A stretch of DNA of 60,824 nt, filler included, from Hausera hauseri (lineage: Eukaryota): the NCBI GenBank assembly GCA_046269625.1. It is 10 parts of 10 records of this genome, joined end to end, with 100 filler letters (N's around TTAATTAATTAA, not from the genome) between each part and the next. Parts side by side here need not be neighbours in the genome. Positions count along the whole stretch, not along the records: positions 32,279 to 45,641 come from JBJURY010844301.1; 9 more parts are not named here. The stretch is one strand, 5' to 3'. This document shows positions 2,636 through 54,443 of the stretch, piece by piece. The position numbers and the translations under genes were made by a program. The notes beneath the pieces are model-generated. The model searched no databases. It worked only from the letters and a program-made list of their open reading frames with translations, and was not told the DNA's origin. Numbering within the stretch: position 1 is the first letter of the stretch; every line of letters begins with the position of its first letter.

Positions 2636-2714
2636 AAAGAAATAAATTTCATAAAAGAAATTAAAAAACAGGAATTCAACGATCAAACTGGTTTGCGAGA
2701 AGGGAATCAGGTTC

Positions 2715-23341: not shown

Positions 23342-26300
23342 TCACCCCCTCCCCCCACTATGGCAAAGTGAAAACTATAAAGATCAAAATAAACGGAAAG
23401 AAAAAATCGCTAAACGAAAAAGTGTCTGATCATAGTAAGAACAAGACGTTGAGTGCCTTCTACTGATTTTTCCCTGTTATACTTGCTAAATGTGACTCTA
23501 CGTTTTTTGTCTTTATGCGGCGTGTTTTCTTGCAGAGATTGAAGTTGGGGAAAGAAATTGTCGGATTTTATTGTGAGTATTGTGTCGTGTGAAGATGAGT
23601 CAGAATAAGGAGAAAAAAAAGGTGAAGGAGGAAGAGAGGTTGTTCAAGACGTATGGTTAAAGGTATTCAAGAGAGTGTTAGAAGACGAAGGAATGATAAA
23701 AGGTGTAGTGCAGATGAAGGAAGATGACTGCTGGAGTAGAAGTTGGAATTGTATTAGGCAAAAGAGTGGAAGTGGAAAATGAAATAGATGTAATATTAGA
23801 GAAAGGAAAAAAGATAGGAATAGAAGTAGAGAGAGGAGGAAGTTGCGAAGCGTAAATGAAAGGAGTAAAAGACGATGTGTGCGGGAAAAGGGAGAAAGGA
23901 AGCGCCGAAGAGAGAGAGGACGAAGAGGGAGCAAGAAGATGGAGAGTTTGGTAAAGTAGAAGTGGTGTTTGACGGAGGAGGTCTTGTAGAAGGAGAAAGC
24001 AGGTTATCATCAGGGGATGAAGGAGGTGTTAAAATTCTTGAGGGTGCAAAATCGGATGGGGAAAAGGGGATAAACTGTCAGAAAAAATTGAAGTGGAAGT
24101 CTTGTGAAAAAACCTAGGGGAAAGTGGATTAAGAAATTGAACAGAGATGGAAGGTGAATTTTTGGATTGCTGTGCGTCGTGTATAGATGTTGGGGAGAAA
24201 CGGTTTCGATGGAAAACGTATCGGCAATGAAGAAAGCCGGCTTAGCGTTGTTGATGTAGAATGTTACTTCCTTTTTGTCACTGAAAATGATGATGTTGTG
24301 AGAGTGTAAACGATTTACTTTGTAAGGGGCAACATAATGAGGTTGAAAACCACACGGCGTCTGATTCTTTAGCCATATGAACTTGGCAGTGTATAAATCG
24401 TTGGGTATGTAAGGTTTATTTCCGTGTAATAGTCTACAAAATGAGTCTTTGCTGATCTCAGTGAAGTGTCTCTGTGCTGCTTGTATGGTTTCATCTGTAG
24501 GAATATTGTCAAGCTCAGCCAGCTCGAATAATGGTTTGATAGAAGTACCAAATAATGATTCTGCAGGAGAGCAGCCTATAAAAGTAGATGGTGTGTTCCG
24601 CCAGCCAAGCAGAACGTACGGAAGGAGTGTAGTCCAACTGCGATTGGACTCAGCAAGGATTTTGAGAGAGGTTTTCATTGTTCGGTAAAAGCGTTTGAGA
24701 AGGCCATTCGATTGAGAATGATATGGTGACGTGTGAATGTGGTTAATTTCCAATCGACTGACAAGAGATTTAAACAGGTTGGATTCAAACTGTGGACCTT
24801 GGTCCGAAATGATGTAGCGAGGTGATCCAAACCTGCTAATCTAAGTGCGGATGAAACATCTGCGATTGTTTCTCTGTTGATGCTCTGAAGCGGGACAGCC
24901 TTTGGCCATTGCGAGGAACGGTCCATCATTGTGAGGATGAACTGATGGCCGTTGTCTAAGGGTAATGGGCCAACAAGGTCAATGTAAACAGATTCAAAAC
25001 GAAACGTGCAAGGAAAATGATATAGTGGTGGCTTTAAGTGCTTAGTAACTTTGTATTTTTGGCATGCAACAAACTACCTAACCCATGCCTGCACGTCAGA
25101 GCGCATCGACGGCCATCCTACTTGGAGTTGTAAGAGTCGAAAAGTGGCCTTGGCACCAGGATAGTGCAGCGAACGGATGTTGTTGAATGCTCCTTTTTGA
25201 AGCGATTCAGAAAAATGACTTTAGGATTATAAGGTTTGGAGGTGTCAAAGGTTACACAGTCGATGGTTTTGCAGGATTTCAAAGATTTAAGGATGTCAGG
25301 AGGTAGCTTGTTTTGTTCAAGTTTGGGTTGAGAAAAAATTGGTGTGAAATCAATCGAGCTAGCGATCGGGACAAAAAGTCAGCTACTAAATTGTCGACGC
25401 CGTTTAGGTGCTTAATTACAAAATTAAATGTGGACAAGTACGATATTTGCCTCTCCCAACATGCAGAAGGCGATTTTATGATGAGAATTTGAAGCAAGGG
25501 CTTGTGGTCCGTTTGTATTGTAAATGTTCGTGCAGTTAGCAGATGTTTAAAGTGTTTTAAGCCAAGGACCATTGCAAGCAACTCTCTGTCAAAGTTGGAA
25601 TATCTTTGCTCTTGTGTCGTAAATTTTCGAGAAAAGATTTCTAGTGGCTCATGGGATCCATTTTTGACTTGATGGAGGACAGCACCTGCAGCTGTTGTAA
25701 ATGCATCCGTGGTTACGAAGAGTTCTGCATGGGAGTCGGGATAGGCCAGAATTTCTACGGTTTTTAGATTATCTTTGAGGTGATTGAAAACGTTGACTAA
25801 TTTGGCGGTCCATTGAATAGGCTGCTTTTTCTTGCCAGAGGTTAATAATGCAAATGGAGCGGCTAGAGTGGAACAGCGTGAAACATACTCATGATTAAAA
25901 TGCAAGGTTCCGAGAAAAGAACACATCTATGTAGATGTACGTGGTAGTTGCATGTTTTTGAGCTGTGTGATGCGCTCTGGCTGAGGTGAATGTCCGGAGG
26001 AGCTAATAACATGTCCTAGGAAGTTCACATTATGTTGAGAAAAGATCATTTGGTAAAATTAATTTGCAAATTGTTTTGGTGCAAGTGTCCGGAGTGTTGT
26101 TTCGTAGAAGATGATGCAATTAGAATATCATCAATATAGGGATAAGCGATTTATAAACCTGAGAGGACTGAATCTATATGCTTTTGGAAGGTCAGAGAAG
26201 CGCTACGGAGTCCAAAAGGCATGAAAAGGTATTCGATAAAGCCGAAAGGTGTAATGACAGCCGTTTTCGGAATGTCTGCCGGGGCCACAAGAATTTGGTG

Positions 26301-27480
26301 GTATGCTTTGTGTAAATCAATGCAGAAAAAGATAGTCGAACCATGGAGCCTGTGAAGGATATCATTAATTAATGGTAGAAGGTAGGCATCCATTGTTGTT
26401 ATGATGTTGAGTTGGCGGTAATCACCGCATGGGCGAAAGGTGCAATCTTTTTTTGGAACCACATGTAGGGATGAAGACCACGGGCATTTGGATCTTCTGT
26501 TTATTACTGATTTTTCCATTTCGAGAAACTCAGCCTCCACTGCCTGTCTGCGGCGAAGCAATGGCGAGTAGACCTTTTGACGTATTGGTCTTTGATGTGC
26601 TGTTACTATGTGATGGAAGGTGGATTGAGGAAGTTCGAATGATTTGTCTTTTTGAAACAGACGAGTGCAGGAAGACGAGATATATTTCTGTAAGTCAGAG
26701 GGCAACGATGAAAAGTTATCAGGCGGTGTCGATGCATCGTGACTGGATGCAGTTGAGGTAGGACTTGTAGATAAGGTGTTGTGACAAGGTGTTATTTGGT
26801 GCGGGATGTTCGTGTTGAAGATGGTGTTGGCAGCTGTAGTATCAGCAATAGGTGCCACGCAGTTGGCAATATCGTATTTGTTGTCGTAATAAAAATTTTT
26901 GTATAATGAATGATTATAAAAATAATTTAAATCGGGAGTTGTTTTCTTCAGTATTGACTTGTTGGAAGCAATCGCCTGGGTGGTCACGGAAATGCTGCTA
27001 ATTTGATTAAAATTATGTCCGCTCTTTAAGGAACATCGTTTGCAGTCTATAAGTAAATTATAGTGGGACAGAAAGTCTAAACCCAATATAGGTGTGCGTA
27101 CATTGACTACTGTAAATTTCCAAGTGAATGTATTTGGGAAATTTGAAAGAGTGAAAATTAATCTGGTAACACCAAAGGTTTGTAAAGGTTCACCGCACTC
27201 AGTGAACACTTGCTTTTTTGAAGTGAAATTGTTTTGCATATGCTGCGTTGGTGGTAGTAAAGAAATTGCTGTGCCAGGGACAGGGTGTTGTGTGTGAGTG
27301 CAACATTTCATAGGCTATGTCCGCCAGTTCGGCTAGCTTTTCCAGCGCCGTGGAGTTCTCCACAATAATTAGCAAAGACATTATTAGAAGGGGCAATACA
27401 TTTTAAAAATAACAACGAAGAAGTTCTGGACTATGCTCAGATGTTACGCCAAGGGTATTGAAGTGGGACAAAGACGTGCG
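23073..27480 (-). mobile_element. Degraded Ty3/gypsy LTR retrotransposon (Gag end, partial protease, RT, RNase H, integrase, PPT, LTR)
   Basis: LEKLAELAD (Gag end), PILGLDFL (protease), PWSSSLHVVPKK..FRPCGDYRQLN, YIDD, TDAF..ERQISYL..DFLSR (RNase H), TSPYHSQSNG (integrase); order PR-RT-RH-IN; protease DTG region appears deleted. Confidence 0.92.
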
Positions 27481-32278: not shown

Positions 32279-32643
32279 TTTATGAGCTTTCTATCATCTT
32301 GTTATTTGATACATTATATTTATTTTTCCTTATTTTTCGTATTCTATTCTAAGTAACTAAGTAATTAAGTAAGTCTAAGTAATGTTGGAAGTTATAGCCG
32401 TCTAGGTCCAACCTACTTGACGGCAGCCCGTCTAATTCTAACTAATGAAGAGCTAATTATAACTGTAGTGAGTAAATAATACCTAAAGGCTCACAGCCTA
32501 CTAGACCCCTACATACAGACATGGGATAATGTTAGGTAAGGTCTGGTTATCTGACACCCTCATTACAAATCTTATTCACCCATTAATTCATATTAAGTAA
32601 GTTCTCGAAGCCTCTCCCAGGTGAAATTAATGGGAATTAAACA
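32279..32643 (+). repeat. 5' LTR (3' part), ending ACA; degenerate PBS at 32646-32663
   Basis: Colinear similarity to 44350-44636; followed by AC-TGGTACTTTGACCCGGGA. Confidence 0.75.
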
Positions 32644-32696
32644 ACTGGTACTTTGACCCGGGAAAGCTTAGTAACCTAGAAGCATTTAGATAGTAG

Positions 32697-33800
32697 ACGA
32701 ATAAAACCTCTAAAATTACGACCAGAACAGGGACACCGTATAAAGTAGATTCGGATGATAATTTGCCATTTGGGTTAGAGTTCATAACTAATTTAAGTGA
32801 AGAAGATGAAAACGGAATGGCCCGAAATGAACATAACATAGAACTGGTGATGCAGTCAAAAGCCGACTTCACCTTGCCCATGAAGAAGTTTTCAGGAAAG
32901 GAAGACGTACAAGATTTCCTCATGGAATATGATGTATATTCTAAGAGCTTCGGATGGAATGATTAACAACGAATGAATAGGTTACCTCTCCACCTAAAAG
33001 GAACTGCATTAACAATATACTTCCAGATGTCAGAAGAGGATAAAAAGGATTGGAAGGCTCTCAAAGATAAGTTACCTCAAAAGTTTCTAGTTGATCCTTC
33101 TGGAAAAAGAAGAATAGAGGAATTTATACAAAGGAGGCAACGAAAAGACGAGACAGTTCGGGATTTCGTCTGCACACTGGAAAAGTTAGCTGCAAAGGCT
33201 TATCCTGATGCAGTAATAAGAAATAACGCGTTGTTGGCTCAATTTCAATATGGATTAGAAGGGAAGTTAAGAAGTATTATATTGCAAGCCGATCCCTCCA
33301 CATTTTAAGAGACAATTAGGAAGGCCCGAAAAGCCAAACGGGATGCCAAATTATATAAATGGACAAAGTCAAAAGATAATACAAACAACAACAAACGAAG
33401 AAGAAATAGTACAAAAAGATACCAGAGATACGACAGAAATCGAAGCCCATCGCAAACGTCAGCTACAGAGGTTGAATCCAATGTAGAAAGATGGTAAGAT
33501 TCAAGTTAAAGAACGATGGGGAAAAGTCAAAAAGTATTCCACCAAAGGCGGCCGTTCGTTGCCAAGTATAGATTCAGAGAGTAGTTTAAAATGTTTTAAT
33601 TGCAACAAATATTGTCACATAGCAAAAACTAGTAGATCACGCAGAAGAGAATCTACAAGGACGAAAGATAAAAAGGAAGAAAAAAAAAACAAGATTATAC
33701 GTCAGCCACGTCAGAGGAGTCTTCCGATAAAGATGAGTCAGAGGAAAGCGAACATGAGGATAGTAAGAAAGATAAAAAGAGAGAAAAGGTAAATTACGTT
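32697..33800 (+). pseudogene. gag: Gag (capsid domain plus CCHC zinc knuckle)
   Basis: KFSGKEDVQDFL..Y......GWND, LHLKGTAL, RRQRKDETVRDF...L..LA..AYP, QFQYGL, CFNCNKYCHIAKTS. Confidence 0.88.
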
Positions 33801-34191
33801 GATAGCGTGCTGTCGCAACGCATGAGGAATCAGTTAGCAATGGAGTTAAAAGTTTATAAATTCTAATAAAAACACTAAGAGAAAATAATAATTATGTATT
33901 AGAGGAGAAGCCAAAAGGAGGAAAAACTAGACAAAGAAGAAAGAAGGTAATAAGAAAAGAATAGAAACAGAATCAAGGGAAACGCCTACGAAAAGAAGTG
34001 ATACAGAAAGAAAAAGGTGGCGAAAGAAAGTTAACCCTGATGAGTTAACATCAGAGGAATAAAACCAAACAATAAAAATATTTGACGAAACCGTCATTGA
34101 ACAGGTGATGTAGGTTATGGAAACAGATTTGGATGCAGAAGATGATATTATTCAATAGGTAGTTGCTACAGATCCCGAGAACACAAGGGAC

Positions 34192-35034
34192 GTGAACCAA
34201 GCAACAACCGCAATATTAAAAATAATAGACAATAAAGTAACAATAGTTAAGATAAATGAGATTCTATTTCAGTTATTACTACTAGCTTACGACAGTAGCC
34301 CAGTACGAGAAATAGCAAGAACAATACTAGCTAAGACAGCCGAAGGTAAGAAGAAGCGGAATGAGGCAGTAAGAATAACATTAAAGGAAGGAAACCAGGA
34401 TATAAGGGTCATTAAAATGAATGAGATGGATGATGTATTAACATTACGAGAAAATATTAAGGAATTGGAGCCATTTTATAAAGAAAATGTCTATGGATTA
34501 AGTTTCTTTGGCCGAACATTATATGGCTATGATCAATTGTTAAGAATTGGGTGCCGGAGTGAAAATTACAATCCCATCACTATAATCGAAATACGCGCCG
34601 ATGCAAGAGCGGAAGAAACAATAGCTGACATAATAAGAGAAGTGGGACCCCAGGAACTCCAAGGAAGGGAAGAACAGTTGTTAGCTGATACTCAAGATGT
34701 TACGGTACAAACAGAATCACAAAGAAAAGGAAAGCCAAAAGGAACAAGGATAAATGACATACGAAACAGAAGGGATAGGAATGAGGAAATTGTACGACGA
34801 TTATTACTAGCAGAAACAGATACGACACCGGAATCTGTAGACATAGATCCGTTATTAAGAACGTTATTATTAGCAAAACTCCACATGTCATTTGCGTCGT
34901 TCGAAATGCAGGTGACTATTACATATGAATTGTTTCAGATGTTACGGAATAATATGTTAAGAAATATCAGACAATTTTACGAAAATATTAACGAGGAACG
35001 AATTAACAAACTCCACGAAAAGGATATATTATAA
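34192..35034 (+). CDS. ORF X, unknown protein between gag and the glycoprotein
   Basis: 280-codon open frame on the element strand; no recognised motif. Confidence 0.5.
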   Translation: MNQATTAILKIIDNKVTIVKINEILFQLLLLAYDSSPVREIARTILAKTAEGKKKRNEAVRITLKEGNQDIRVIKMNEMDDVLTLRENIKELEPFYKENVYGLSFFGRTLYGYDQLLRIGCRSENYNPITIIEIRADARAEETIADIIREVGPQELQGREEQLLADTQDVTVQTESQRKGKPKGTRINDIRNRRDRNEEIVRRLLLAETDTTPESVDIDPLLRTLLLAKLHMSFASFEMQVTITYELFQMLRNNMLRNIRQFYENINEERINKLHEKDIL

Positions 35035-35326
35035 AAGATGTTTGCCACAGGGATTACTTGGGAAAAGGGAGTTACGGCGGTGGCCTATTTAAATATATAA
35101 AGTGATAGTAGTTAATTATCAAACACAGAATTTGGAGGAAATAGTACGAAGTATAAAAGTAACCGTTAAAATCCTACGTGATACTTTAGAAATTTGGATA
35201 CAATGTAAAGGCGGGTGGATATCTAGTCTGATGAATGGTAGGTTAAATGTACAAAGAGAAGTACCAGAAAGACCAACCACAACCCAACCAAGTATTAACA
35301 AACACGGCCTCGGTGGCACGTCAATT

Positions 35327-37160
35327 ATGGAAGTACTACAAATATTACTAATAGCATCATTATACTTGCCTAAAGCCATGGGAATGGTGGCTTATGATTG
35401 TGCGAAAATAAAAGATGGACAAAAGTATTCTCTAATAGATTTAAAAAAATGTCCCGAAGCAGACCCAGAGCAATTGACAACAACTAGTGGTCATCGATAT
35501 TGGGTGTATCAAGAGTCAGAATTTTAAATGTGAAGATAAGGGAGTACTATGTGAAGAAGTCGTTCCTTTTATTCAATTGTGCATATTATTCAGGAAATTC
35601 GACCATTATTGAACCAAAGACCCCTTTTGAGCCAATAATAATATCTCGGGCGTAATGTCAAGATGTTTTTAAAATCGGGGTCATAACAATACAGAATGCT
35701 CAAATTCCAGCCATACGAGGAAAGATAAAGTATACTCGAATTTTTCGAGCGGAAAGAATAGATAAAACAATGGAAAGCACCTGTATGGGAGTAGATTACG
35801 ATGTTGGAGGAACAATTGCTCCAAGAACGGTGGCAATTAAAGACTATCAAGTTCAGTTAAAAGAATACGAAGTATTATTCGATTTACAAACAAGATTTAT
35901 GACAATAGTGAGTGAATGCGAATATGAAAGCGGTAAATGTAATATAGAATAATCTAAAATTACATGGGAAACATCTTTAAATCGATGTCATTTGACACTA
36001 TTAAAGGAAGGGAAATTGAATAAAACAGTTGGAAAAACGGCTGAAAAGAAAACATCAACCTACAGAGAAGGGGTCAAAGAAGTAAAAATGACGGAAGTAG
36101 CAACAGTAGTATACTAACAGAACCCTGAATAGAAGATGCGCTTTAATATTATGGGAGCAATCAATAAATGTAATGAAAAAATGTTTAAGACCAACTATAA
36201 AGGCTTATATCTCTCATCAAGGGAAGTGGCAAAAGCAAAAACAAAAATTAATAAGATAGGTATTAAAGTAACGCAATATTTCGATAACAAAATAGGCTAC
36301 TTGATTAATTATGTTCTAGAGGAAATAACAAACTTTTATAGAGAAATGATATTAAATGAATGTAAATTAAATTACGAAATAATACGTAACAAGATGGCGT
36401 TGGTAGTAACAAACCCGCATATGGTGGCCGCAGTTATGTCGTTCGGAGGTGAAGTAATCCGGCGAGTAATGGGTGAGGTACTAATAACGATCGAATGTAA
36501 AAAGTAGAGGTAGCCATCAGAGAAACGAAGATATGCACCTCGGAGTTGCCGGTGTTGTATAATATGGAACCCAGATATGTAATACCGGTAATTCGGATAT
36601 TATTAGATGCTAGGGCGAAACCCACGCTACTGGATAATTGTACTTTTAACATGTCACCGATGTTCAAGCTAAATGATAAGTGGTTCAGAATGCCAAAGCG
36701 AGAAGAAGTAGGAAAACCGGAAACTTTAATTTCGATTAATTTACAAAGAAACCAAAAATTTGAACCACTAACTGGCATTTATACGCAGCAGAATTTAGAA
36801 AATTATCGAAGGATGTTCTTATTCCCTCAACAGAGACAACAGATAATAACGGAATTAACAAGAAAAGTAATGTGGAATGGAAAAGGTTCCCCACATTGGA
36901 AAAATTTAAGGGGAATGGATTATGTGAAGAAAGTTACAAGGAATGTAATGAAAAAGATGTGAGGGAAGTTTTTGTACTTTTGCCAGGCAACATCAGGATT
37001 CTTGGCTATATATTTTATTATTAGCGCCTTACGGACGATATTCACTGGCTGGGTAAAGCGTATGGCATACACGCAGCAGTGGGTTGTTCTTGGAATATTC
37101 TTATAGCGCTGGTACTAGCCGTAGCTAGTTGCTTCCTAGGAAATCATGATGCAAAATAGC
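35327..37160 (+). pseudogene. env: Chuvirus-like (gB-type, class III) fusion glycoprotein
   Basis: Signal MEVLQILLIASLYLPKAMG, then AYDC...YSLIDLKKC; YFDNKIGY...FYREMILNECKL...GEVLITIECKKVEV...CTSELPVLY...PVIRIL; TM region GKFLYFCQATSGFLAIYFII; the cysteine and motif pattern of chuviral G proteins. Confidence 0.8.
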
Positions 37161-37499
37161 AGAAGAAAGTAGTCAAAGAAAAGAATCACGAAATTGACTA
37201 GGACCCACCTTACAGCATTCTGAATAGAAGAGGTGGCAAGGACAATTTGGATACCAGACCTAAAAGCAATAGGTATATCCAGGGACTAAAAAGACTGTCA
37301 TTGAAACACCAAAAACAAAAATATCAAAAGAAACTATTTACTTATTGACCTCAGTTAAATCCTGCAGAGGAGTGCCACGGGCAAGATTATAATGACCAAT
37401 GGCCGATAAACCCATCAGCTCCCCAGCATGTAAAACATGGGAAAATGTACCCACGTAACAAATCCTAAGAATAAAACAGGATTATGATGAAAATCCTAT

Positions 37500-40400
37500 A
37501 CAATGTAATCGCGAAACTACACATAAAGTAAGGTATAAAAACAAAGTTCAATCATACACGAGGCCGGAAATAGAAATAGAAGTAAATGGGTACCCACTAA
37601 TTGCCTTAATAGACACCGGCTCCACAACCACAATCATGGGAAGGAGTCAAATATCTAAGGAATTGAAAAGTAAATTACGAAAGCTCGAAGAGACCCTGAT
37701 AAATGTAGGAACATTCGGAATGAAAGAGGAGATAAAGGTGGTTCTAGACGAAAAGATTAAAATTTGTGGCCAAATTATAAAACATACTATAGGAGTAGGC
37801 GAGAATCTAACTAACAAAATATTACTAGGATGTGACGTATTACAACAATTAGATAATGTATAAATTGATGCTAAGACAGGCCAACTTAGAAAATTTAACG
37901 AGAAGCGATACGAAGGAGCCGTTTCACTCATAGAAGATATTACCATCCCACCGCGAGCGGAAATAATAGTGCCTGGCAGAATAGGAAGGAAGATACCAAG
38001 AAGATCAGTTTATTTTGAGCCATCTCCATACGGAATGTAGAAATAACACATTTTAGTGGCATCACATGTGGATAAAGTAAGAGATGGAAAAATCCACTTA
38101 ATAATCAGTAACGCAGGAACAAAAAAAACGACTAAAACACAATATCGACTTGGGTCGGTAACGGCTATTGAAGAAATACTCAAGGATGAGATCAAGTCGA
38201 TTATCTCAGATGTAGATAAAATCGAAAAGATGATGTCGAAAAAATTAAAGTTGGACATTAACAAAGATACGGAAAATAAAACGACCACGATTAATTGGAA
38301 AGAGAAATTACAAAACTCTACGATACTAACAGAAGAGGAAAAAGAAATGCTACTTCAATTATTAGAAAATAATAGTGGTCGGTTCGCCCAAAATGACTAT
38401 GATTTGGAAACAATCAATATTATTAAACATGTTATCAAGTTAAAAGAGGGACAAGAGAAGCCCATAAAAAACGACCTTACAAATTAGCATATGATAAAAA
38501 GAAGCCCGAAAAATTATAAAAGAAATGAGAAAGAATAAAATAATACGACCAAGCTGCTCACCATGTACTGCTCCATCGTGATGGTCAAGAAGAAAGACGG
38601 TACGATGAGATTTTGTATAGATTATAGGGCATTAAATGAGGTAACAGAAACCGACACTTATCCACTGCCAAAGATCGATGAAATATTGGATAAACTACAT
38701 GGTGCAACGATATTTACCACTATCGAGCTACAAAAGGGGTTTTGGCAAGTGGAGGTGAAAGAGGAAGATAAACCTAAAACAGCCTTTTCGATAGGAGAAG
38801 GACTATTGGAATTCAATAGAATGCCGTTTGCATTAAAAAACGGACCGCCCACATTCCAACGAGGAACGGAACTACTACTCTTAGACGCACCACATGCCAT
38901 GGTATATATCGATGATGTAATAATTGCATCGTCGGATTTTCAAAAACACCTGAAAGACTTACAGGATCTCTTTGATAGATGTGAGATCATGGGTTTGAAA
39001 ATAAATCCAAAGAAATGTATGTTCGCTCAATCCGAAGTTGATTTTCTCGGACACCGAGTTGATAGAAATGGTGTAAAGCCCCAGGATAGATTAATAGGGA
39101 AAATAAAAGATTTCCCAAAACCAACTACAGTAAAAGAATTACGGCAGTTCCTAGGATTGGTAAACTACTACCGCAGATTTATAAAAGAGTTTAGCAAAAT
39201 AGCAAAACCACTGTACAAACTATTACGGGAGGATTTAGAAAAAGTGGTATGGACCAGTGAGTGTCAAAAGGCCTTTGATAATTTAAAAGAAAAACTATTA
39301 AACGCTCCTATCCTCATATACTCAGATATGACCAAACCATTTATATTAGCAACTGATGCGAGCGATTATGGAGTGGGAGCAGTACTATCACAGAAAGATA
39401 AGAATGGTAAAGAATACCCGGTGGCATACGCGTCAAAGAAGTTAAACAAACACCAGATAAAATACTCGGTAATCGAAAAAGAATTACTGGCAGTAATTTT
39501 TGCTTTAGAAGTATTCTCACCTTATATAAGTGAGAACAAACTGTTAGTGGTATATACCGATCATCGACCGGTACAATGGTTGAAAAATCATGAGAATCCT
39601 AACAGTAGATTATTACGGTGGGCATTAAAGTTGCAACAGTATACATTGGAATTTAAATACAATCCAGGTTCGCGAAATACCAATGCAGACTACTTATCAA
39701 GAATGCCTCAGGAAGCAAAGACAAAAGAAGTAGTAGCGGCAATATAGAGTATGGACGGGTCAGCAGAAAAAATAAAGGAGAATCAGCGGGAGGATTCGGA
39801 AATAAAAGAAATCAGAAAATTTTTCCAAAACAAAATAGTACGAAAGACAGGGAGTTAGCTAGACACCTAGCTAGATTTGGGGAAGCCTACGAAGAAAAAG
39901 AAAGATTTCTATATTATATACATCAAAATGGACCTGCACTGGTAATTCCGTAGAAAAATAGAACGGTATTATTAACACAATATCATGACGGATTACTAGG
40001 CGGACATCAATCGGTAAGTGAAAATGTAAACAAATTAAAGAGGAAATATTTTTGGCCCTCAATGGCAAAAGATGTTCAAGACTAGTGTGATAGTTGCAAG
40101 TTATGCGCCACTAGAAAAAATACTGGAACAAAGTTTAAAGCATCTTTAAAAGTATGGGATAATCCACCGGCTCCATTCGAGTTTACAGCTATGGATATAA
40201 CGGGACCCCTACCATTAACAAGAAACGGTAATAGATATATCTTAGTGTTTATAGATTATTTTACCCGGTGGGTAGTGGCCCTACCTATGCCTGACATGAA
40301 GGCGGATACTATTGCAGGAAGGTTTGTGGAAAATATAGTATTTAACTATGGAGCTCCAAGGATCTTACTGACGGATCAAGCATCTAATTTAACCGGCCAG

Positions 40401-41040
40401 GTAATGCAAGCCATATACGATATTTTACGAATTTTGAAATTACGGTCAACACCGGGACATCCAGAAAATAATGGAATGGTAGAGCGATATATAGGCGATT
40501 TGAAAAACAAATTACAAACCGTAGTCAATACAAGGCAGGATGACTGGGACTAATATATCGATGCGTGTGTTTTCGTAAATCGAACCTCGGTACACGAAGC
40601 GACGAAGGAAACTCCATTTTATTTGATGTACTTAAGAGATGCTAGGATACCAATTGATCTCGATTTTAATACTAAACCTATTTCCCATTTAATGGAAATA
40701 GAAGAATATAAACAAGTTATGAAGGAGCGATTGCAACTAGCATATGATCTAGTAAAAGAAAATCAGAAATATTATAAGGTAACCTATAAGAAATATTATG
40801 ATAAGTAGACTAACCAACCCAAAATTCAAGTAGGAGACTCTATGATGTTATTCACTCCATTGATTAAAAAGGGGAAAACATCGAAATTAGAGAGGCCATA
40901 CAAAGGACCTTACAAGGTGGAAAAAGTAGATTTGCCCAATATATTTCTCAAGAAAAATAATATCGTTTCAAAGGTTCATATTAATAGGTGCAAACCGGCA
41001 GCTAAAGAAAGTAAACTTAGAAAGGATGAATCAGACAGAG
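37500..41040 (+). pseudogene. pol: pol: protease, RT, RNase H, integrase
   Basis: ALIDTGS (37612), ILLGCD, MRFCIDYRALN, YIDD, TDASDYGVGAVL, TDHRP, ADYLSR, HDGLLGGH...CDSCKLC, MDITGPLP, LTDQASN, NGMVER, PYKGPYKV. Confidence 0.95.
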
Positions 41041-41069
41041 TTAAGGCGATAACGGACAAACCCTGTAGG

Positions 41070-42431
41070 GCTCCCAGCCTAAGTAAGTACGTGGTATTGC
41101 TAATTGCCTTCTACTGTCCGGTGAAATAGCACAATTGACCGAAAAGGACAAAAATACGTCATTCGATTGCAATATTTGAGGATTTGTTATTGAAGAGTAT
41201 TCAGTATCAAGTACAATATGACAAAACAGGTAATAAATGTGTGAAATTCCATACTATAATGCCTATATCCGCCCAATACATGATAGGAATCCAAATTATA
41301 TCTTCGCGGTCTAATCAAAACCCCCTGGAACGTAAATATGGTTGCATACTAAGCCATTGGAAATTGGAGACAGAATGTATCATTGAAGAATCAGGTATGC
41401 ATGAAGTATATTATACACTAATTAAAAACCAAGATGATTATTATCGAAGTCTATATACAAGAAGGATGAGATCTATATTAATCCCTAATCGTCGCCACAT
41501 GAATGAAACCCAATTGGATGCAATAATAATCGGTCAAATCATAGCTAGATCCATAGGATTTAAAAGTGGTAGAAGTTGTATCGAAGTAACAAGTAAAATA
41601 TAATTAGAATATATAAGATGGATAACAGTATATATAAAAGAGGAGTGAAGTCAAAACCGGGTACCTATGAAATGCTACATAACGCACGAACAAAGACAGA
41701 CTTGTTGTAACGTAACCCGAAGGAAAATCTATAGTGTGAAATACGCATTAATCCGAAAAGAGAATGGGTGGCTTAAAAACAAATTGAAAGTAACTGATCC
41801 AACTATGTATATACGATATAAGAACCTTATAGAACGAGATGAAAAGAAAGTAAACGACACGGTACCGGTGGTGCAATCCCCGCTGATACATGGAAGCAAA
41901 GATAATGAAAAGGAGATAACCATATTAGTTAAACCTTACACCTCCTACATAAGTCAGAAACGTTCCATTTTGGAAAATGTCACAATTATCACGGCCCCGA
42001 CTTCTCTAATAATTTCTGTAAGGCCGGACCTTGATTTTTCAATAATAAGATTCACGTGCAAAATGCGAAATAACATAGTAGCCAAAGGTATAATAACTCC
42101 AGACGATTTGATAGCACCCTGCGCGACCCTTATTCCAAACATGACATATGCAGTTATTCTGCAGTTAATCGGCAGTAATAACAAAATCATATCCACCAAA
42201 ATCTTAACAGCACAAACCAAAAGTAATGTGATAATAAAACCATTGCACAAAGAGACAAAATATTCATACAAAACCACCGTGAAACTGATGCGCGCCACTT
42301 ATACTCATTCACGAATAGAGTTAATAATTATCAGTGTAACAGTTCCCCTTGCAGTAGTCATCATAGTGGAAATATCAATGAGTAATTCAATATATACGAA
42401 ACCGCCGCAGACACCAATGGATAAGGATTGA
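41070..42431 (+). pseudogene. Post-integrase putative type I membrane protein with an FN3-like domain
   Basis: Hydrophobic YVVLLIAFYCPV at the end of the integrase frame; Cys-containing ectodomain ORFs 41184-41603 and 41667-42431; LIPNMTYAVIL (FN3 L.P.T.Y.V motif); TM-like LIIISVTVPLAVVIIV. Confidence 0.5.
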
Positions 42432-42663
42432 CTTGCGACGGATGCAAAATAACTTTGAGGTATCAACTTCAACCTGACGATGGTGTAACCGGATTACGAT
42501 ACAAGTAATCCAGAAATTAAGGATAATTAAATATGTGATAGTTACCCTACAATTTTGGCTAAATATAAACAAAAGCATACCGGTTACCGCAGTTGGGTTG
42601 ATAACTGTTATGATATGGTTAAGTGATATACATATTCTATTGATTTTCTTTTTTATAGACATC

Positions 42664-43883
42664 ATGTCAATTCAAACCCTCCAAAGAAGCAAGAACTGGT
42701 TTGAAAATGCAAAAAATCATCTAATGAATGCAAATGCCAACAATCCGTGTTATGTGATATTAAACGAGAATACATATAGCCTTAACTATGCATTTGTCCA
42801 ACAAATTCCGAACAACCTCAAAGGCTACTCTCAAAGCCACCGATCTCTCGCATTGATACAGATGACCAAGGCCACTTCGTTCTTGATATCGGATATAATT
42901 ACCTTACCAGATAAATATCACAGTTTAAATGCCTACGATATAATTGGAAAGTTTCAACTCAAAGCGAAAGAAAGGAAAACACAGCAACAAGGTGACTTCA
43001 TCAGTTTGGACCCAAATAATGCAATATCACTAGAATTTAAGTTTATAAAAAATAACGTCACTAAAATCAGATCATTAACTTACCAAATTATGCTGGCGTT
43101 AGAAGTCATTAAAGCAGAATCTTTTTGGACCACACCGATCCATGGAAAAGCGTTTAATCTGGTTGAACCAGACTATCTCAAATATGCCACTATTCCGTAT
43201 CGTCGAATACCATCTATAACTACCGATGAAATTGTAATTGTTGCAGTCAATCTAGTCTATGATCAATTTAATCAGTTTACACGTATTGAGTGTTCAGTCA
43301 TCAATCTCTGAGGCGATTCTTTATTTTATGCTATCATTATTCCGAGACAGCGAATCAACAATTACGATTCACATATAACGGGTCTATTCGAAATCAACAC
43401 ATCGGTCAGATGGATGAGAATACATTTTATCAAAGAATAGCCGAAATACTAAATGACAAATTGATAGTGGGAGCTGCAGTTTATGAGATGCTAACTAAGC
43501 ATCTCAAAGTCCCACTCAGACGGATCCTAGGAATTCGTGATATCCTCTATCACGAAGATGTGATCCAAAAATATGAACTAACTTCTTCTATCTATAAAGA
43601 GCTTGCAAAACGCATCTACGAAATGCGTGCCATGCTGTTACGCAGCGCAACATTAGTACAATGTTATCAAGTAATTTATAACAGTTTAACATGGAAGGAT
43701 GAAGAAATAAACGATAATACACCTGCCGATAAACTTCTCAAAAGGGCATCTCTAACATCGTTAAGGAAAAGAAAGATTGAAATCGACGAAGCAATTACGC
43801 TGGATGGCGAAACCTACATGCATGATGGGATACGATGCAAAACCTCTACAGGCAAGACATTCTTTCAACCTCTTCCTCAGTAA
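42664..43883 (+). pseudogene. ORF with C-terminal ISG20/REX4-like DEDDh exonuclease fold (catalytic acidic residues not evident)
   Basis: Reading through the TGA at 43309 and one frameshift gives CSVINL*GDSLFYAIIIPRQRINNYDSHITG..RNQHIGQMDENTFYQRIAEILNDKLIVG, which aligns with ISG20-type CSLVN..G.VLYDKFIRP...ITDYRT.VSG....HM..A..F.....EIL.LL.GKLVVG. Confidence 0.6.
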
Positions 43884-44349
43884 ATTTGGGACAATTTACT
43901 CTAACCCCCCATCGAAATTGACGAATAATCTGAACATTGATAGAATGAAATCATTTTCTTGCTAAACTTATTTCATCAGCTCATTAGCTAAATATTAATT
44001 ATTGTGTCATGATATCCGTTTTATTGTGTCATGATTTCCGTTAACGATTATCATATGTTTTATAACTTTTTAGTAGATGTTTTTGGTGAGCACTGAATTA
44101 ATGATATTGATATCGCTTTTAATATTAGTTTTTTGTATAATATTTCATTTATCTGGAACAAAACTTTGTATAGAAACATATGACCAATCAAGTATAAATA
44201 TTTGATAATTTTTAGCGAAAATTAGAATAAAGTCTTGCTTATCATCTATCCGTTTTTTTGTATACCTCCGTAAGAGTTTATGCAATTGTTAACTTATCAT
44301 TTTTCTTTTGTTGAAATATTATATTTGGTATACTATTATTGTTCATTGT

Positions 44350-44636
44350 TGATCTTAAGTAACTGAGTAACTTACTAAGTCAAAATAATCTTTTGGAACA
44401 TCGCCGTCCAGGTCTACCCTACCTGACGGCAACCCGTCTAAATACCTAAGTAATCAGAGCCTATTAAAACCGTAGTAAGTAATTTAATTTGTACAGGCCC
44501 ACAGCCTACTTGACCCCTACACACAGAAATAGGATAGGGTTAGGTAAGAGTACGACAGCTGAAACGAACCTTGTTCACCCATTAATTCACAAATTCTCGG
44601 AAGCCTCTCCCTGGTGAGATTAGTGGGGATTGAACA
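44350..44636 (+). repeat. Second LTR (5' boundary not determined), ending ACA
   Basis: Diverged but colinear with 32345-32643. Confidence 0.75.
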
Positions 44637-44638
44637 AC

Positions 44639-44657
44639 TGGTTCCGTGACCCGGGAT
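44639..44657 (+). promoter_or_regulatory. Primer-binding site, probably tRNA-His
   Basis: TGGTTCCGTGACCCGGGAT compared with TGGTGCCGTGACC/T..GAT expected for tRNA-His; 2 nt after the LTR-terminal CA. Confidence 0.6.
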
Positions 44658-44684
44658 CTAGAATCAAGAAACCTTTAGATAGCA

Positions 44685-45641
44685 GACGAATAAACCGTTA
44701 AGATTACGACTAGGAAAGGGATACCGTATAAAGTAGACTCAGACGATAACTTACCATTTGGGTTATAGTTTATAGCCAATTTAAGTGAAGAAGAGGAAAA
44801 CGGAATGGCCCGAAATGAACATAATGTAGAACAGGTAATACAGTCGAAAGCGGACGTCACCCTTCTAATGATAAAGTTTTCAGGGAAAGAAGATATACAA
44901 GATTTCCTCATGGAATATGAGGTATATTCCAAGAGTTTTGGATGGAATGACCAACAACGAATGGAGAGGTTACCTCTCCACCTGAAAGGAACTGCATTAA
45001 CGATTTACTTCCAAATGCCAGAGGAGGATAAGAAGGATTAGAAGACTGTCAAAGATAAGTTACCCCAAAAGTTCCTAGTTGATCCTTCAGGAAAAGGAAG
45101 GATAGAGGAGTTTATACGAAGGAGGCAAAGAAAAGACGAGACAGTCCAGGATTTCGTCTGTGCACTGGAAAAGTTAGCCGCAAGGGCTTATCCCGATGCA
45201 GTAATACGAAATAACGCTTTGTTGGCTCAATTTCAATATGGATTAGAAGGAAAGTTAAGAAGCATTATATTACAAGCCGACCCCTCCACTTTTCAAGAGG
45301 TAATTAGGAAGGCTCGAAAGGCCGAACGGGACGCTGAATTGTATAAATGGACGAAGTCAAAAGATAGTGCAAATAATTACAAAAGAAGAAATAACAGTAC
45401 ACAAAGGTACCAGAGATACGATAAAAATCAAAGCTCCTGACAAACATCAGCCACAGAGGCTGAGTCTGATGTAGAAAAGAAGGTAAGATTCAAGTTAAAG
45501 AACGATGGGGAAAAGTCAAAGAAGTATTCCATTAAAGATGGCCGTTCGCTGCCAAGCATAGATTCAGAGGGTAGGTTAAAATGTTTTAACTGTAACAAAT
45601 ATGGCCATATAGCAAAGACGTGTAGATCACGCAGGCGAGAA
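44685..45641 (+). pseudogene. gag: Second, diverged gag copy (truncated by contig end)
   Basis: Colinear with 32697-33650; intact CFNCNKYGHIAKTC zinc knuckle. Confidence 0.9.
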
Positions 45642-45741: not shown

Positions 45742-47356
45742 CCGAGTTTTTGAATGAAGAAATGGTAATCTTATCGGGATAAATTGTGAAAAATCACCGG
45801 GATAAATTGTACCCGTTTACATCTCAAATTACAATTGCTGCATGCGGGACCCAGATATTTTCAGGTAAAGTGATCATGATCACGTACTTTGTAATTTCTT
45901 TCCGTAAGTGGATTTTCACACAAGTAGCACATTGTTGCCTGGTTGTGATGTTCTCTTTCTTCCCTCCGTAATACGTTCATAGGTTTATTAGCCATTATTT
46001 CTACATTCATGGCAATTTTCTCCAATTCCTTCATGAATACTGTTGCTGCATTCGGTCATCGGTACAGAAACGGTTCTTCGCTGTAACCTTTTGCAAAGAT
46101 GCAAAATGATATGTGTTATTGTTGTATTTGACTGCTCGTTTTGTGAATTACATGTATACACTGGTTGTAACATGGCCTCAAAATCACAGTAAATTACAAT
46201 TGGAAAATGTTTTTTTTCTTATTCCTTAAATTCTATGTAACTTTCATCGGAAAATTCAGCACGGACAGATTGTTTCGCCGAACAGTACAGCTCATATTGT
46301 TCCAATTTCGTCCACTGTAGTAGTTTATTAAACATTGTTCGCATATAAATAAGAGCCTTTTATTTCTGGATATTTGTGAACCGACAAATCTGCTGAAATG
46401 ACAAATGTATAAAAAATGAATTCTTTCTTCATCACTTATCAACAACAAATCTTGGTGATCATCCTTTTCTTCTTTGCAGATTTTCAACGGATATATTTTC
46501 CTTGTTTCTCTTCTATACCGAATACATTGATTGACACATTATTATTGACATTTTCAAATTTTTTGAATTCATGCATACTTGGTGGAAATTGACTGATTGT
46601 GGAAAAATCATATGGATGCTGTATATTGTTATATTTATTTGCCCTGTTTGGATTTTGTTCATTTGCATCTATGAGTATTTTTGTTAAAACGGCATATTTG
46701 AAGCACAGGTTGTCGTTGTAGTTCATCACATTGATACACGACTTTGTGCTTTCAATCCAATCCGGCAGTGGTATATAGGATGATCCACCGATTGGCATAT
46801 ACTTATTGATTCTAATGTTCAGTCGTACTATGTGGTCTAATGTCCATCCGCTTTTCTTCGCTTCACTTTCATCTGCTTCGTGGACGATTTTGTTACTTTC
46901 ATTTTGAATAAATGCGTTGATATCTGTGTCCATCAAAACGGCTTTTCCGACTGTCTTGAATGCCCGTTTTGCGATTTCACCATCAATATTCGTGTAAATG
47001 GCTTCGAGAAAATAATTCACCTTGATTGCATTTAACTCCTGTACTGCGACCTCCAGAATACCAGCGATTTCGGATTTGTGATTTCCCATAAACAGGTTAA
47101 TACTCCTGGTTTCTGCCGCGTAGTGTTGTTGCGGTTCAATTGTATATTCGCCTACTCTTCAACTAAAGGCATGTCTGTCTGCTACTTTTTTCGTGGTGCC
47201 TTTTGGTGGTGGTGGTTTCAATGTATATTTTGATGCGTTGACCCTTCTTCTTTTTGTTTTTCGACACTTTGTTATGCCATTTGATGTTAAAGGGATTGGT
47301 GATGGTGGTGTTTCTGCTGCTGCTGCTGCTGTTGTTGTTGTTAAATTGTTCATCAT
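45742..47356 (-). pseudogene. Maverick/Polinton-type PolB, N-terminal half (copy C)
   Basis: KSGWTLDHIVRLNIRINKYMPIGGSSYIPLPDWI..KSCINV..DNLCFKYAVL, SINVFG, FICEQCL, IYCDFEAML, CATC, KVRDHDHF. Confidence 0.88.
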
Positions 47357-50181
47357 GTTGATTGATTCATTTAAATTTTTGCGTTTTCATCTCGACTGAA
47401 ATTGACCCAGGTGTGGCTCATGTTTATGTATAAATTTCCCGTACGTTGTTTTTTCATGTTTGGAATTGAGGTCAGATATAATATTGGTTTCCGTAATGTT
47501 TCATTACATAGTACTGCTGTCCGCATGGCATTATCGTCTGTATGGGTTTGAACGACAGACATAATGGTGATGTTGCATTCGGTGTATATGACTGCCATGA
47601 TGCATTTGGTGTGCATGATATTTGATCTGGTTTATTTGATGACGATGTTATTTGTACTAACTTTTCCATTTTGCTTATATCTTGAAATTGATTTATATGT
47701 TCCTTATGTTGGGCATAAAATTTCATGTGTTATGCCGTTTAGAGATCGACGGACATATATATCCTTTTTCTGATTCATATTTTCGAATTTTCTGATGATG
47801 CATCTTCGGATTTTCATGTTGCATGTTATTACAATATTTGGCATATGTTTCACACTAAAATTTTTTAATTTATCAAATGGAGAAATTAATCTTACTTTAG
47901 TCATTATAAACTTTTCAGCTACAGTATAATAATAATTGATTTTGTTTCCTTATCTTGTTTTTTTAACGCACACATTGTTTAGTTATATTATGTCCTTACA
48001 TTACCTTTCATTTAATCTTCTGTGTGTGTGATATAAAGAGATGTACTTTAAAAGACATCCATAGAATCGAAAAAATAACCGATATTTTTCGAAGGTATTT
48101 ATCTAAAACCGCATAAAAGTTCATGTGTTCAAAGTTCACATGTACATTGAAAATTCGTTTTCCTTTGTATACGTTGATGGACATGCTTAAAAACTTTCCG
48201 ACACACATATCCATAATCAGTAACCGACGACCGACGACTTCTGTTTGGGAATGAGTTATTTCCATTCGGACACCATTATGGAATAGCACCCGTCATGGGC
48301 TTTCGTTTCCTGTACTACACGATACTGGATTCCATCATCAGTGCACATACACACATGGGTGTCTGTTACGTCATCGGTGCATCGTGCACCTTTCTTTCCG
48401 GTGCTGTTCGCCTATTCATAGGCCGACAGTTATGGGACCATCAACCGTTGGTCGATAACGCTTCCCATTTACTCATAAACCATGGGCCGGTTCTGGATCA
48501 CTTTTTCGCCATCGTCCCATGAAGCTGCGTTCCATCCGATCGACTTCCTTCTTTCACATTCGATGTGCCATCGCTCGCCCATCATTTCTATGTGCCACAC
48601 TTGACCATCCATCATTTCCTTCTAACATCCGCATTTTTGGCATCGCTCCCCAGCTTCCGGGATGCATCGTACAGATTCACCGGTGGTATTTTTAAAATCG
48701 CCGTTCCCGAATTGCAAACCTAGTACCTGTGTGCGCATCAAGCACGCTTCGTATTGGCTGCATGGGAGATGATCCAGAACCGGCCTTTTTATACTACTCA
48801 AATTTCTAGAATGTCGACAGTCAAGAAATGATATTATTTTAAAAATGTGTTTATATGAATGTATAAAATATAGTGGATCATTTTCAATGCATGTTCATGT
48901 TTTGGCGGGCAAATTCGAGGCGTTCCTTCTTATGTCGTGACTGTGAGCGTGGAACCACAAATTTTTTTGATTGAATATGATTTGGATTTCTTTGTAAAGT
49001 CCGCCAAACAGTAGATTTGCTTGCCTCAAGATTAAAATTCTTCTTTATACCGTTGCACGATATTTCGTTATTCGAGGTTAGGCGGCATATTCTACTTTCA
49101 TCTCGCTAAGGTAACGTTCTCGTTTTCTTCTGATTTATTAGTCAATATCGGTAACGAGCAAAACGGTATCTCTTCATGATAATTAAGGTTTAATCTTTGA
49201 AGTCTGGATTGTAGAGGCTTTACTATATGGTGGACACATTTTGTCTTTCCATGGACTCTTGAGTTTTTTGAAGTTGCACGTTATGCATATGCCACAAAAT
49301 TTGGTTTAATTGTATAAGATTAAATGCCAACGTCAACGATGTCTTTTTGTTTGTGAGGTATAGCAGGGATAACAGAATCCGTCGTCCTCCTTTGGTAGGC
49401 CATGTACGGTTCCTTGAAATTAATTTTGCTCCTGTGCAATGTATCTATGATTAATACTTTACTGCATACACACATTGTACATTTCTTCACAAAGTGGAAT
49501 GCAAAATATAGAAGGTACTTAAACTAAACAGATTCTGTGGAAAAATGAAATAATGTATACAGTCAAAAGATTCTATGTCTTCAAGGATTAAATTTGAACC
49601 TGAGCTATCATTTCATTATTACGTATCGACCTTGGTCAACCACAATTAGATTTATTTTCTAAGGACTTTCTTTTTCTTTAAGTTATTTGTACCAATTCGT
49701 GATTATTCGATCTAATGGACATTCATTTACACATCTACAGGACTCATCACATCTGCATCTAGTCATAGTTTTTTATTAGATTTTAGAACAATCATAATTA
49801 TCCCTTTTTCGGTACACCACCTACAATATCATAAAATAGAAAGTGTTCGNNNNNNNNNNNNNNNNNNNNNNNNNNNNNNNNNNNNNNNNNNNNTTAATTA
49901 ATTAANNNNNNNNNNNNNNNNNNNNNNNNNNNNNNNNNNNNNNNNNNNNCGAAAACCAATCAATCGATTTAAATTCTAACTGCACATTCACATACAACAT
50001 CAAGTGCACTACCGATTGCACCCGGTTTTGAGTGCTAATCATCGATTTTTGAATTTTCGAAAATCCAATATTATTGATTTTTGCACACTTGCACATGTGC
50101 TGCACAGTCGCACTTGCACCTATCGATGTTCACTAATGTGCACTATCGATTAGCACAAAGTGCAGATCGATTCGATCAACA

Positions 50182-52702: not shown

Positions 52703-53021
52703 CAGGGTGTCCTAAAAGTCAGGTCCCTATTGAAAAATTAATGTAGTTCATAACAAATATTATTTAAACAAAACGTCATATTGTATAATTTTTTATATTT
52801 TGATAAAAGTTAATTTACATTTAAATATTTTTTGAAAAAAAAGTTTATAGCTTCAACGTATTTTCACGGTTCACGAATAATAGTATTTTGGTTTTTATGT
52901 AAAACGACTATAACTATATTTATATAACTCTATATATTATATATAGTAACTTTAAAATGGCACACTAACGTGTGCATTCTTCATTTATATTAGAAATGGG
53001 AACTGATTTTTAGACACCTTG
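52703..53021. mobile_element. Tc1/mariner-type MITE nested in the hAT 5' region
   Basis: TA|CAGGGTGTCCTAAAAGTCAGGTCCC ... GGGAACTGATTTTTAGACACCTTG|TA (imperfect TIRs, TA duplication). Confidence 0.7.
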
Positions 53022-53051
53022 TATATAAATTTTATTTCTCCATACATAATA

Positions 53052-54443
53052 ATGACTCAAGCAAAGAAAAAGTGTCGGCAATATAATATGGATTATTTGA
53101 AATACGGATTTATCGAATCACCTGGAAATAATACATTACCAATGTGCCTTATTTGTCAAAAGGTTCTATCAAACGAAGCGATGAAGCCTTCGAGATTACA
53201 AGAACATTTGAATAAAATTCATGGCGATAAAAAGAATAAAGATTTATCTTTTTTTCAAACATTGAAAGATAAATTTATTAAACAACCGACATTGGCAAAA
53301 CTCTTTTCAAATTTTAGCAATTGAGATGACGATGGCTTGTTTGCTAGTTACAACATTTCATTAATGATAGCGAAATCGGGAAAACCACATACCATTGGCG
53401 AAGAACTAATAATACCAGCCATTAGTGAAGTAATACGTACCGTTCTGCATAAGCCAGTAAATGATATTATCAAGAAGATTTCTTTGAGTAATAACACAGT
53501 GCAAAGAAGAATTGATGAAATGGCGGAAAATGTTGAAAACTCATTGTGCGAATATTTAAAAACATCTAGGTTTTCTATTCAACTAGATGAGTCAACTTTG
53601 CCAGGTAATGAAGCTTTGCTTTTGACATACGTGCGATTCATAAAGGAAGAACAAATTTGTCAAGAGTTCTTATTTGCAAAATATTTGCAAACCGATACCA
53701 AAGGAACTTCAATAATCCATATAATGGACGAATTTTTTAAAGCAAAAGAAATACCTCTTAGTAATATTTTATCAGTGGCCACGGATGGTGCTCCAGCGAT
53801 GATTGGATGCTACAAAGGCTTTCTTGCATGTTTGAAAAAGGAGGTACCGAATGTATTCACAGTCCACTGTGTCATCCATCGTCAGCACCTAGTTGCCAAA
53901 AATTTAAGTGCTCGCCTACATAATTCATTACAATATGTAATTAAAGCTGTTAACACAATTCGGAGTAAATCATTGAATGACAGATTATTTAAACAGCTTT
54001 GTATTGAAAATGATGAAGAATTTAATCGTTTGCTGTTTCATACAGAAGTTCGATGGTTGTCAAAGGGAGTTTTTTTAGATAGGTTTTACAAATTATTTAA
54101 CTCGGTGCTGCAGTTCTTGGAAGATAAAGATGATGTATTGCGATCCAATTTAATTCAATCCAAAAGTGACATTGCTTACTTAACAGACTTATTCCAAAAA
54201 TTTAATGAAACCAATCTTCAACTTCAAGGTGATGAGGTGAATTTAATAAAAACAAAATCGGTTATATCTGCATTTGTTGCAAAACTACTTTTGTACAGGC
54301 AAAATCTTGGACGAGGAGATATCAGACAGTTTCCAAATTTAGCAAGAGCAGAAAGTAAAATTGAAGACATTCTATCCTATTGTGAGCACTTGGATGCTCT
54401 GCATTTAGATTTTAGTCAACGATTTGATGATATTTTGAAAATG
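53052..54443 (+). pseudogene. Buster-type hAT transposase (ZBED5/ZBED8/SCAND3-like) with one in-frame TGA at 53322
   Basis: BED finger CLIC..MKPSRL..HL...H, QLDES, ATDGAPAM, HCVIHRQHL, TEVRWLS. Confidence 0.93.

Follow-up and report, generated by a model that had tools for sequence, protein, structure and literature searches.

A decayed Ty3/gypsy element of Hausera hauseri with a fusion glycoprotein upstream of pol, probably a compact relative of planarian Burro

In a 60,824-nucleotide stretch of Hausera hauseri DNA (assembly GCA_046269625.1), hereafter called the window, ten contigs are joined by N spacers, and contig 7 (32279-45641) contains a long terminal repeat (LTR) retroelement that carries a fusion glycoprotein (hereafter “G”) between gag and pol. 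This element is very probably a dead copy, compact at ~12 kb, from a GAG-ENV-POL lineage of Ty3/gypsy that is related to Burro. Its genes all lie on the plus strand, in the order LTR, primer-binding site (PBS), gag, open reading frame (ORF) X, G, protease (PR), reverse transcriptase (RT), RNase H (RH), integrase (IN), membrane protein, exonuclease-like gene and LTR. A preliminary description of the window had proposed this order on a single strand, and our Pfam search on 13 single-frame pieces of the element, with stops read as the residue X, agrees with it. The same search, together with unbroken relatives, supports the further proposal that a chuvirus-like fusogen, here of Monjiviricetes type, lies ahead of pol in a Ty3/gypsy element. 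The PR-RT-RH-IN order, which had been taken to define Ty3/gypsy, does not do so, as it is found also in BEL/Pao elements and retroviruses. We assign the element to Ty3/gypsy because gypsy-type Pfam families are present among the 13 pieces and no BEL-specific family is. The gypsy-type gag and PR-RT-RH-IN, the LTRs and the tRNA primer-binding site are all in place, and Ty3 Gag-Pol was the top match when the relatives’ profile was compared with the PDB. The features are as follows.

32279-32643, plus strand: left LTR, truncated by the contig start and ending in CA; repeat with 44311-44636.
32646-32657, plus strand: decayed, tRNA-His-like PBS, with three mismatches to the His(GUG) 12-mer of supplement 1 of PMC13524379.
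32817-33790, plus strand: gag, with capsid and degenerate CCHC knuckle, two stops and one frame change (PF03732, 1.5e-8; PF19259, 8.7e-8).
33791-34095, plus strand: charged, decayed linker whose frame is not assignable (over 33790-34158, the three frames hold 10, 7 and 13 stops).
34096-35326, plus strand: ORF X, a possible ubiquitin-like domain followed by a Bcl-2-like (BH1/BH2-like) domain abutting the signal peptide; 30% identical to residues 376-706 of the relative P0001.
35327-37140, plus strand: G, with internal signal, ectodomain and transmembrane helix (~36999-37055), in three main frames with five stops (PF24664, hydrophobic peaks).
37141-37563, plus strand: decayed cytoplasmic linker from G to PR; bridged by a single ORF in 11 of the 16 proteins that carry G and in the relative L003.
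37564-38484, plus strand: aspartic protease with an intact DTG, and the following spacer (PF13975, 5.9e-8; PF00077, 1.9e-7).
38539-39845, plus strand: RT (YIDD) and RH (PF00078, 8e-31; PF17917, 4e-39).
39846-41078, plus strand: IN, H2C2 finger and core, with four stops (PF17921, 8e-17; PF00665, 6e-12).
41079-42431, plus strand: second membrane protein, in frame with IN (over 41000-41650, the three frames hold 23, 4 and 23 stops; hydrophobic peaks).
42664-43883, plus strand: separate 3′ gene (ORFs B and C), an N-terminal domain and a DEDDh exonuclease-like domain without the catalytic residues (phmmer matches to the 3′ ORFs of L002 and L003).
44311-44636, plus strand: right LTR, homologous part only; repeat with the left LTR.
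44639-45641, plus strand: PBS (one mismatch to tRNA-His) and gag (86.5% DNA identity) belonging to a related second element that follows in tandem.

The coding path contains 25 in-frame stops and about nine frame changes. By its 25 stops, the copy falls outside the intact-ORF rule for inclusion in PMC13524379; its relatives are unbroken. Six of the 25 stops fall on 40 listed places where related contigs differ (there are 3405 further places), and this incomplete site list fits copy-specific decay.

G was matched by PF24664 (Monjiviricetes fusion) in three colinear pieces, which cover profile positions 3-55, 76-385 and 385-572 with E-values of 0.005, 2e-19 and 1e-30, respectively. An env with a signal and a transmembrane helix is present between gag and pol in the window, as judged from Pfam and the hydrophobic peaks. 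The signal peptide, which starts at 35327, is preceded by in-frame coding sequence, as the preliminary description stated, within a stretch that is open from 35093. The end of G was placed there at 37160, which is not a true end, as the relatives run on into the protease. In all 18 relatives printed, a hydrophobic segment resembling a signal lies ahead of the G start, and the window G is 40-43% identical to that of P0001. In a motif comparison by eye, without computed identity, its cysteine and motif pattern resembles six Schmidtea C1a rows in the portion seen of the env sheet of PMC13524379. The YQES motif of G occurs in four rows of that sheet (at least 229 rows), all from Schmidtea, and the bryozoan rows seen in it are, by eye, unlike G. 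On this likeness to Schmidtea, the host is probably a flatworm. The PF24664 match and the likeness to the gB-type Schmidtea rows suggest that G may be a class III (gB-type) fusogen. The G tree is poorly resolved, except that the window and P0001 are grouped at 99. In one further protein, P0027, the PF24664 glycoprotein begins with a fused mitochondrial ribosomal protein L47 domain, either as a chimeric gene call or as a captured host piece.

How is G joined to gag and pol in intact copies? P0001 is one unbroken ORF of 1130 amino acids that matches the window gag, X and G. No longer form of it was found among 3344 candidates, and a subsequent profile search from P0001 found such forms: it gave 1381 matches, and 19 of the 150 listed, picked for length, were scanned. 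PF24664 is present in 16 of these 19, and 11 of the 16 continue to PR and/or RT in the same ORF. G-PR-RT-RH-IN lies on one ORF in P0006, P0010, P0017 and L003; the P0017 ORF extends from gag through IN, and L003 has a single 3426-amino-acid ORF, from upstream of G to past IN. The earlier suggestion that G might share a polyprotein ORF with pol in intact copies is borne out in these unbroken relatives. Because they carry G inside one polyprotein ORF, we regard G as belonging to the element itself. Additional proteases lie beside membrane segments in many relatives, and the window element has one protease. No relative was found in viral contigs or in the first metagenome scan. P0010 (HBK71150.1), a 2627-amino-acid G-PR-RT-RH-IN polyprotein, is labelled as a hypothetical protein of a Flavobacteriaceae metagenome-assembled genome; this is probably eukaryotic contamination of the bin.

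The RTs of the relatives that keep both membrane proteins are about 52-54% identical to that of the window. In an RT tree of 93 rows, where P0152 was labelled through its near identity to P0151, a branch with a Shimodaira–Hasegawa-like approximate likelihood ratio (SH-aLRT) of 93 separates 11 G-labelled rows, L001 and L002 from the 80 others; the L001 and L002 contigs begin too near RT to reveal G. The same branch appeared in a 32-row subset tree (SH-aLRT 94). None of the 77 outside loci gave a G match, and 35 of the 77 have at least 3 kb upstream of RT. Contig 10 of the window (54544-60824, minus strand) holds a second decayed element with G before pol: G, RT and IN follow in the same order, a protease-like motif was read by eye between G and RT, and a signal-like stretch follows IN at the cut contig end. 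Its RT is 39% identical to that of the first element, in keeping with the preliminary description, which had cited this divergent element with the same arrangement against a chance insertion. At 23073-27480 (minus strand), the window also contains ordinary gypsy pol fragments with RT and IN matches, outside the G-bearing RT group.

The window gag is 53% identical to that of P0001, and its CCHC knuckle is degenerate, while that of the tandem gag is intact. P0001 also has a charged linker between gag and X. The Bcl-2 family PF00452 matched the window piece of ORF X with an E-value of 0.0088, P0094 with 7.7e-5 and P0080 with 0.002. When P0059 was compared with the PDB, 54 sequences were matched, all of them forms of Bcl-xL (best E-value 0.056), and the P0059 signal aligns with the Bcl-xL tail anchor. 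A BH2-like (G/Q)GW motif lies 50-85 residues upstream of G in 8 of the 18 relatives printed. The ubiquitin-like domain was matched weakly in P0001 only (E-value 0.031), with no match in the window piece.

The second membrane protein (ORF A) has a signal (~41079-41117), an ectodomain with five sequons and an FN3-like motif, and a transmembrane helix (~42321-42377). A post-integrase signal-like stretch and a later hydrophobic stretch occur in all eight relatives with a full tail. A profile of six relatives’ tails ranked ORF A first of 12 window pieces (E-value 0.047), and ORF A alone gave nothing meaningful against the PDB. The Atlas match to FN3-containing membrane proteins (0.77) is a lead only. 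An FN3 motif was found in four of nine tails, as compared to a shuffle mean of 0.05, with a post hoc pattern that missed the window’s own similar motif and does not make a fair test. The FN3 fold is plausible, as far as these patterns go.

Downstream of the membrane protein, ORFs B and C are a single gene that one stop and one frame change have broken. Among 80 loci, the nearest three (L001-L003) all have a separate ORF of 440-505 amino acids after the polyprotein; the three ORFs are homologous and two of them match PF00929 (1.5e-11 and 1.4e-5). In a phmmer search among 17 sequences, ORF C matched the L002 and L003 3′ ORFs with E-values of 3e-6 to 8e-6, and ORF B with 4e-4. The preliminary description had called this gene exonuclease-like; Pfam alone gives no support for that, and the relatives’ homologous ORFs do. 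The best PDB matches of the 3′ ORF profile are ISG20L2, ISG20 and SDN1, and ORF C alone gave nothing meaningful against the PDB. No homologue of ORF B was found among 104 candidates of similar length, and its low-recognition readings as a phage cluster (Atlas 0.91, unnamed) or as PD-(D/E)XK (at most 0.86) were dropped for the direct homology to the L001-L003 ORFs. The DEDDh catalytic residues (D-E, D, H-D) are kept in L001, L003 and L002 9043-10371, and are absent in the window ORF and in L002 7268-8740, the first of two tandem paralogues. Because the latter is unbroken, decay probably did not produce the dead exonuclease form, which would instead be a conserved type. In L002, the dead and then the active DEDDh exonuclease ORF stand in tandem over 7268-11517, followed by an ORF with a weak ubiquitin-like match. 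In the window, an open frame with a strong hydrophobic stretch lies at 42478-42663, ahead of the exonuclease gene’s first Met, and was not seen in the relatives.

The preliminary description offered the arrangement as a candidate undescribed one; it is already in print for planarian Burro and for GAG-ENV-POL gB-type elements. Burro/GYPSM1, published in 2019, carries gag, Ubi/SUMO-like, BCL2-like, env and PR-RT-RH-IN in one ORF; its env matches mononegavirus fusion proteins and was presented as the first case of an env lying in frame between these two genes, gag and pol (PMC6431247). The present element shares with Burro a gag with CCHC, a Bcl-2-like domain, in Burro preceded by a ubiquitin-like domain that is only hinted at here, and a mononegavirus-like in-frame env before PR-RT-RH-IN; Burro also has accessory ORFs and copies that are decayed in some species (PMC6431247). 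As in Burro, env stands in frame between the Bcl-2-like domain and the protease in our relatives, and colinearly in the window. Unlike the ~12-kb window element, Burro exceeds 25 kb, and neither a post-integrase membrane protein nor an exonuclease is named in the available Burro text (PMC6431247). The window element, with one CCHC, has no MATH, BIR, ankyrin, AIR1 or Smc match. Ankyrins are present in the relatives P0151 and L002. In P0151, whose 4844 amino acids bring it near Burro in size, the ankyrin repeats are accompanied by C2H2 fingers and by seven protease-like D(S/T)G motifs.

Non-canonical endogenous retroviruses of nematodes are reported to have a continuous gag-env-pro-pol ORF. They resemble the window element in that env precedes pol in a metavirus (Sacco et al. 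2022, PMID 35550022), but the 18 nematode env rows seen in PMC13524379 look, by eye, unlike the window G, and YQES occurs in no nematode row. PMC13524379, which cites Sacco 2022, records Ty3/gypsy elements of the GAG-ENV-POL gB type from nematodes, bryozoans and Platyhelminthes; 10 from bryozoans and 9 from flatworms are tabulated, and the catalogue is limited to intact ones. The Platyhelminthes C1a gB-type errantiviruses have a Ty3/gypsy pol and a gB-type env between gag and pol, as does our element; in the part of the catalogue available, no X, second membrane protein or exonuclease is annotated for them (PMC13524379). A DEDD exonuclease ORF3 located 3′ of pol in the bdelloid LTR elements Juno and Vesta is a precedent, although these exonucleases are DEDDy (RNase D-like) and the elements lack env, whereas those of the window lineage are DEDDh and ISG20/SDN1-like (PMC5408684). 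Anakin has a glycoprotein of the same broad family, of chuvirus origin, but a BEL/Pao pol, whereas the window element has gypsy-type families only (PMC7642597). In the literature searched, we found no description of the second membrane protein or the 3′ DEDDh ORF for this lineage; Grohme 2018, Sacco 2022 or Repbase may already show them. The two 3′ modules may thus be so far undescribed.

The repeat that bounds the element comprises 1355 aligned bases (32306-33651 versus 44311-45641). Because a PBS and gag of its own come after the right LTR, this LTR is shared with, or owned by, the second element in tandem. A TATA-like sequence at 44193 and AATAAA at 44226 suggest that it starts upstream of 44311. 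No polypurine tract of at least 10 was found between 43884 and 44660. The LTR, PBS and gag at 44311-45641 could represent a shared-LTR tandem or an assembly mosaic.

Elsewhere, no tRNA gene and no Rfam match was found in the window. The contig at 5616-12695 has an exact direct repeat of 77 nt at its ends, as in a circular or tandem assembly, an inverted repeat of 157 nt and 75% (7039-7193 / 11443-11598) and, at 9656-11083 on the minus strand, a single long intronless RING-finger ORF. An intronless ORF at 2655-4193 has an eIF2B-epsilon-type left-handed beta-helix (PF25084). Three long overlapping ORFs at 13289-17521 (232, 401 and >810 amino acids) have no Pfam match; they may resemble a large lipid-transfer protein. 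The decayed ORFs at 17622-22972 and 45742-49849, without a convincing Pfam match, presumably resemble pieces of a Polinton-type DNA polymerase. Transposase-like ORFs of the hAT type, with weak DUF659 and DUF4371 matches, lie at 53007-54443.

Homology shows the predicted plan of the active relatives to be one polyprotein, Gag-(Ubl?)-Bcl-2-like-signal-G-transmembrane helix-PR-RT-RH-IN-signal-ectodomain-transmembrane helix, plus a separate 3′ DEDDh exonuclease gene. Considering the hydrophobic segments and the general biology of the endoplasmic reticulum (ER), we propose that the chain would thread the ER membrane. The first internal signal would direct G to the lumen, with a signal peptidase cut following, and would leave Gag-X anchored by the signal, where Bcl-2 proteins carry their tail anchor. 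The transmembrane helix of G would then bring Pol back to the cytosol, and the second signal, after IN, would direct the second glycoprotein to the lumen. The cytosolic parts would be released by the element’s own protease. In this way, capsids could assemble at membranes bearing their own fusogen, with Pol tethered there, and the resulting enveloped particles could move between host cells. The Bcl-2-like and exonuclease modules would probably be accessory, serving cell survival and RNA trimming or anti-silencing, respectively, and the window exonuclease may be a non-catalytic RNA binder. It is speculative that the second protein serves in attachment, that the Bcl-2-like domain is anti-apoptotic, that the exonuclease acts against silencing, and that there is true infectivity.

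Several observations weigh against our assignment of the element and its domains. The RT trees come from quick searches with unstarred support, are unrooted, show contig 10 as a long branch, and contain neither Burro, nor published errantivirus RTs, nor named references. The Bcl-2 and ubiquitin matches all lie under the Pfam curated cut-offs, the BH2-like motif is missing from 10 of the 18 relatives, and the second hydrophobic peaks are weaker in the tail of P0022. When G profiles were compared with PDB sequences, no fusogen was seen (12 weak matches; among the best 60 of 225, all pol or protease). Given the heavy decay of the gag-X linker, a programmed frameshift may exist there. Could G have come from a chuvirus independently, as an insertion into what was an ordinary gypsy element? 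Jingchuvirales glycoproteins in arthropods often adjoin fragmentary gypsy copies without clear capture (PMC10084718), but the unbroken gag-X-G and G-pol ORFs, which fuse G in frame on both sides, refute this, and the order in contig 10, the grouping of the RTs of G-bearing elements and the lack of any repeat of at least 40 nt flanking G also speak against it; we consider such an insertion extremely improbable. It is less far-fetched, but still unlikely, that the contig is a mosaic of several diverged copies of a high-copy family, and that the exact 12-kb unit and its tandem never existed. Two public sequencing runs hold related contigs over all 30 bins of the stretch (15,860 and 1,811), mostly less than 95% alike, and none of those listed spans it; no RNA run is among the public runs listed for the stretch. 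The LTR pair is also less similar (82.7% over 283 aligned bases) than the two gag copies. Against this, independent unbroken ORFs and loci show the same gene order, and single contigs bridge several junctions (e.g., 34784-35134, 35489-36023 and 39551-40282). A mosaic would, moreover, touch the window copy only and leave the anatomy of the family unaffected.

The dead member of a retroelement lineage that we favour could also be the provirus of a true infectious enveloped virus lineage, with two-protein entry by a class III fusogen and an FN3-like attachment protein, and with counter-defence genes. Two membrane proteins are kept across relatives despite the low RT identity to the window, the Bcl-2-like and ISG20/SDN1-like modules look like accessory genes of viruses, and the provirus idea was already raised for Burro (PMC6431247). 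On the other hand, PMC13524379 mostly makes the case that env and pol have long co-diverged by vertical descent, the FN3 assignment is a lead only, and the tails are barely alignable. We find this lineage-wide infectivity doubtful. The fuller version, in which the Burro-related elements are true enveloped reverse-transcribing viruses of flatworms, with a membrane-threaded polyprotein comprising capsid, signal-anchored Bcl-2-like domain, class III fusogen, Pol and FN3-like attachment protein, and with active and dead exonucleases countering small-RNA silencing, seems to us equally unlikely to hold. If it were true, neither the second envelope protein nor the pair of exonucleases would have been described before.

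The compact element shows the core of the lineage: a Bcl-2-like domain and a fusogen before pol, a second membrane protein behind integrase, and, at the 3′ end, an exonuclease or pseudo-exonuclease of the DEDDh type. In planarians, BURRO1 is repressed by PIWI-interacting RNA (piRNA) silencing (PMC8532177). If the 3′ modules hold and are unreported, they would provide handles on the infectivity of env-bearing invertebrate gypsy elements, and on how such elements cope with piRNA silencing.

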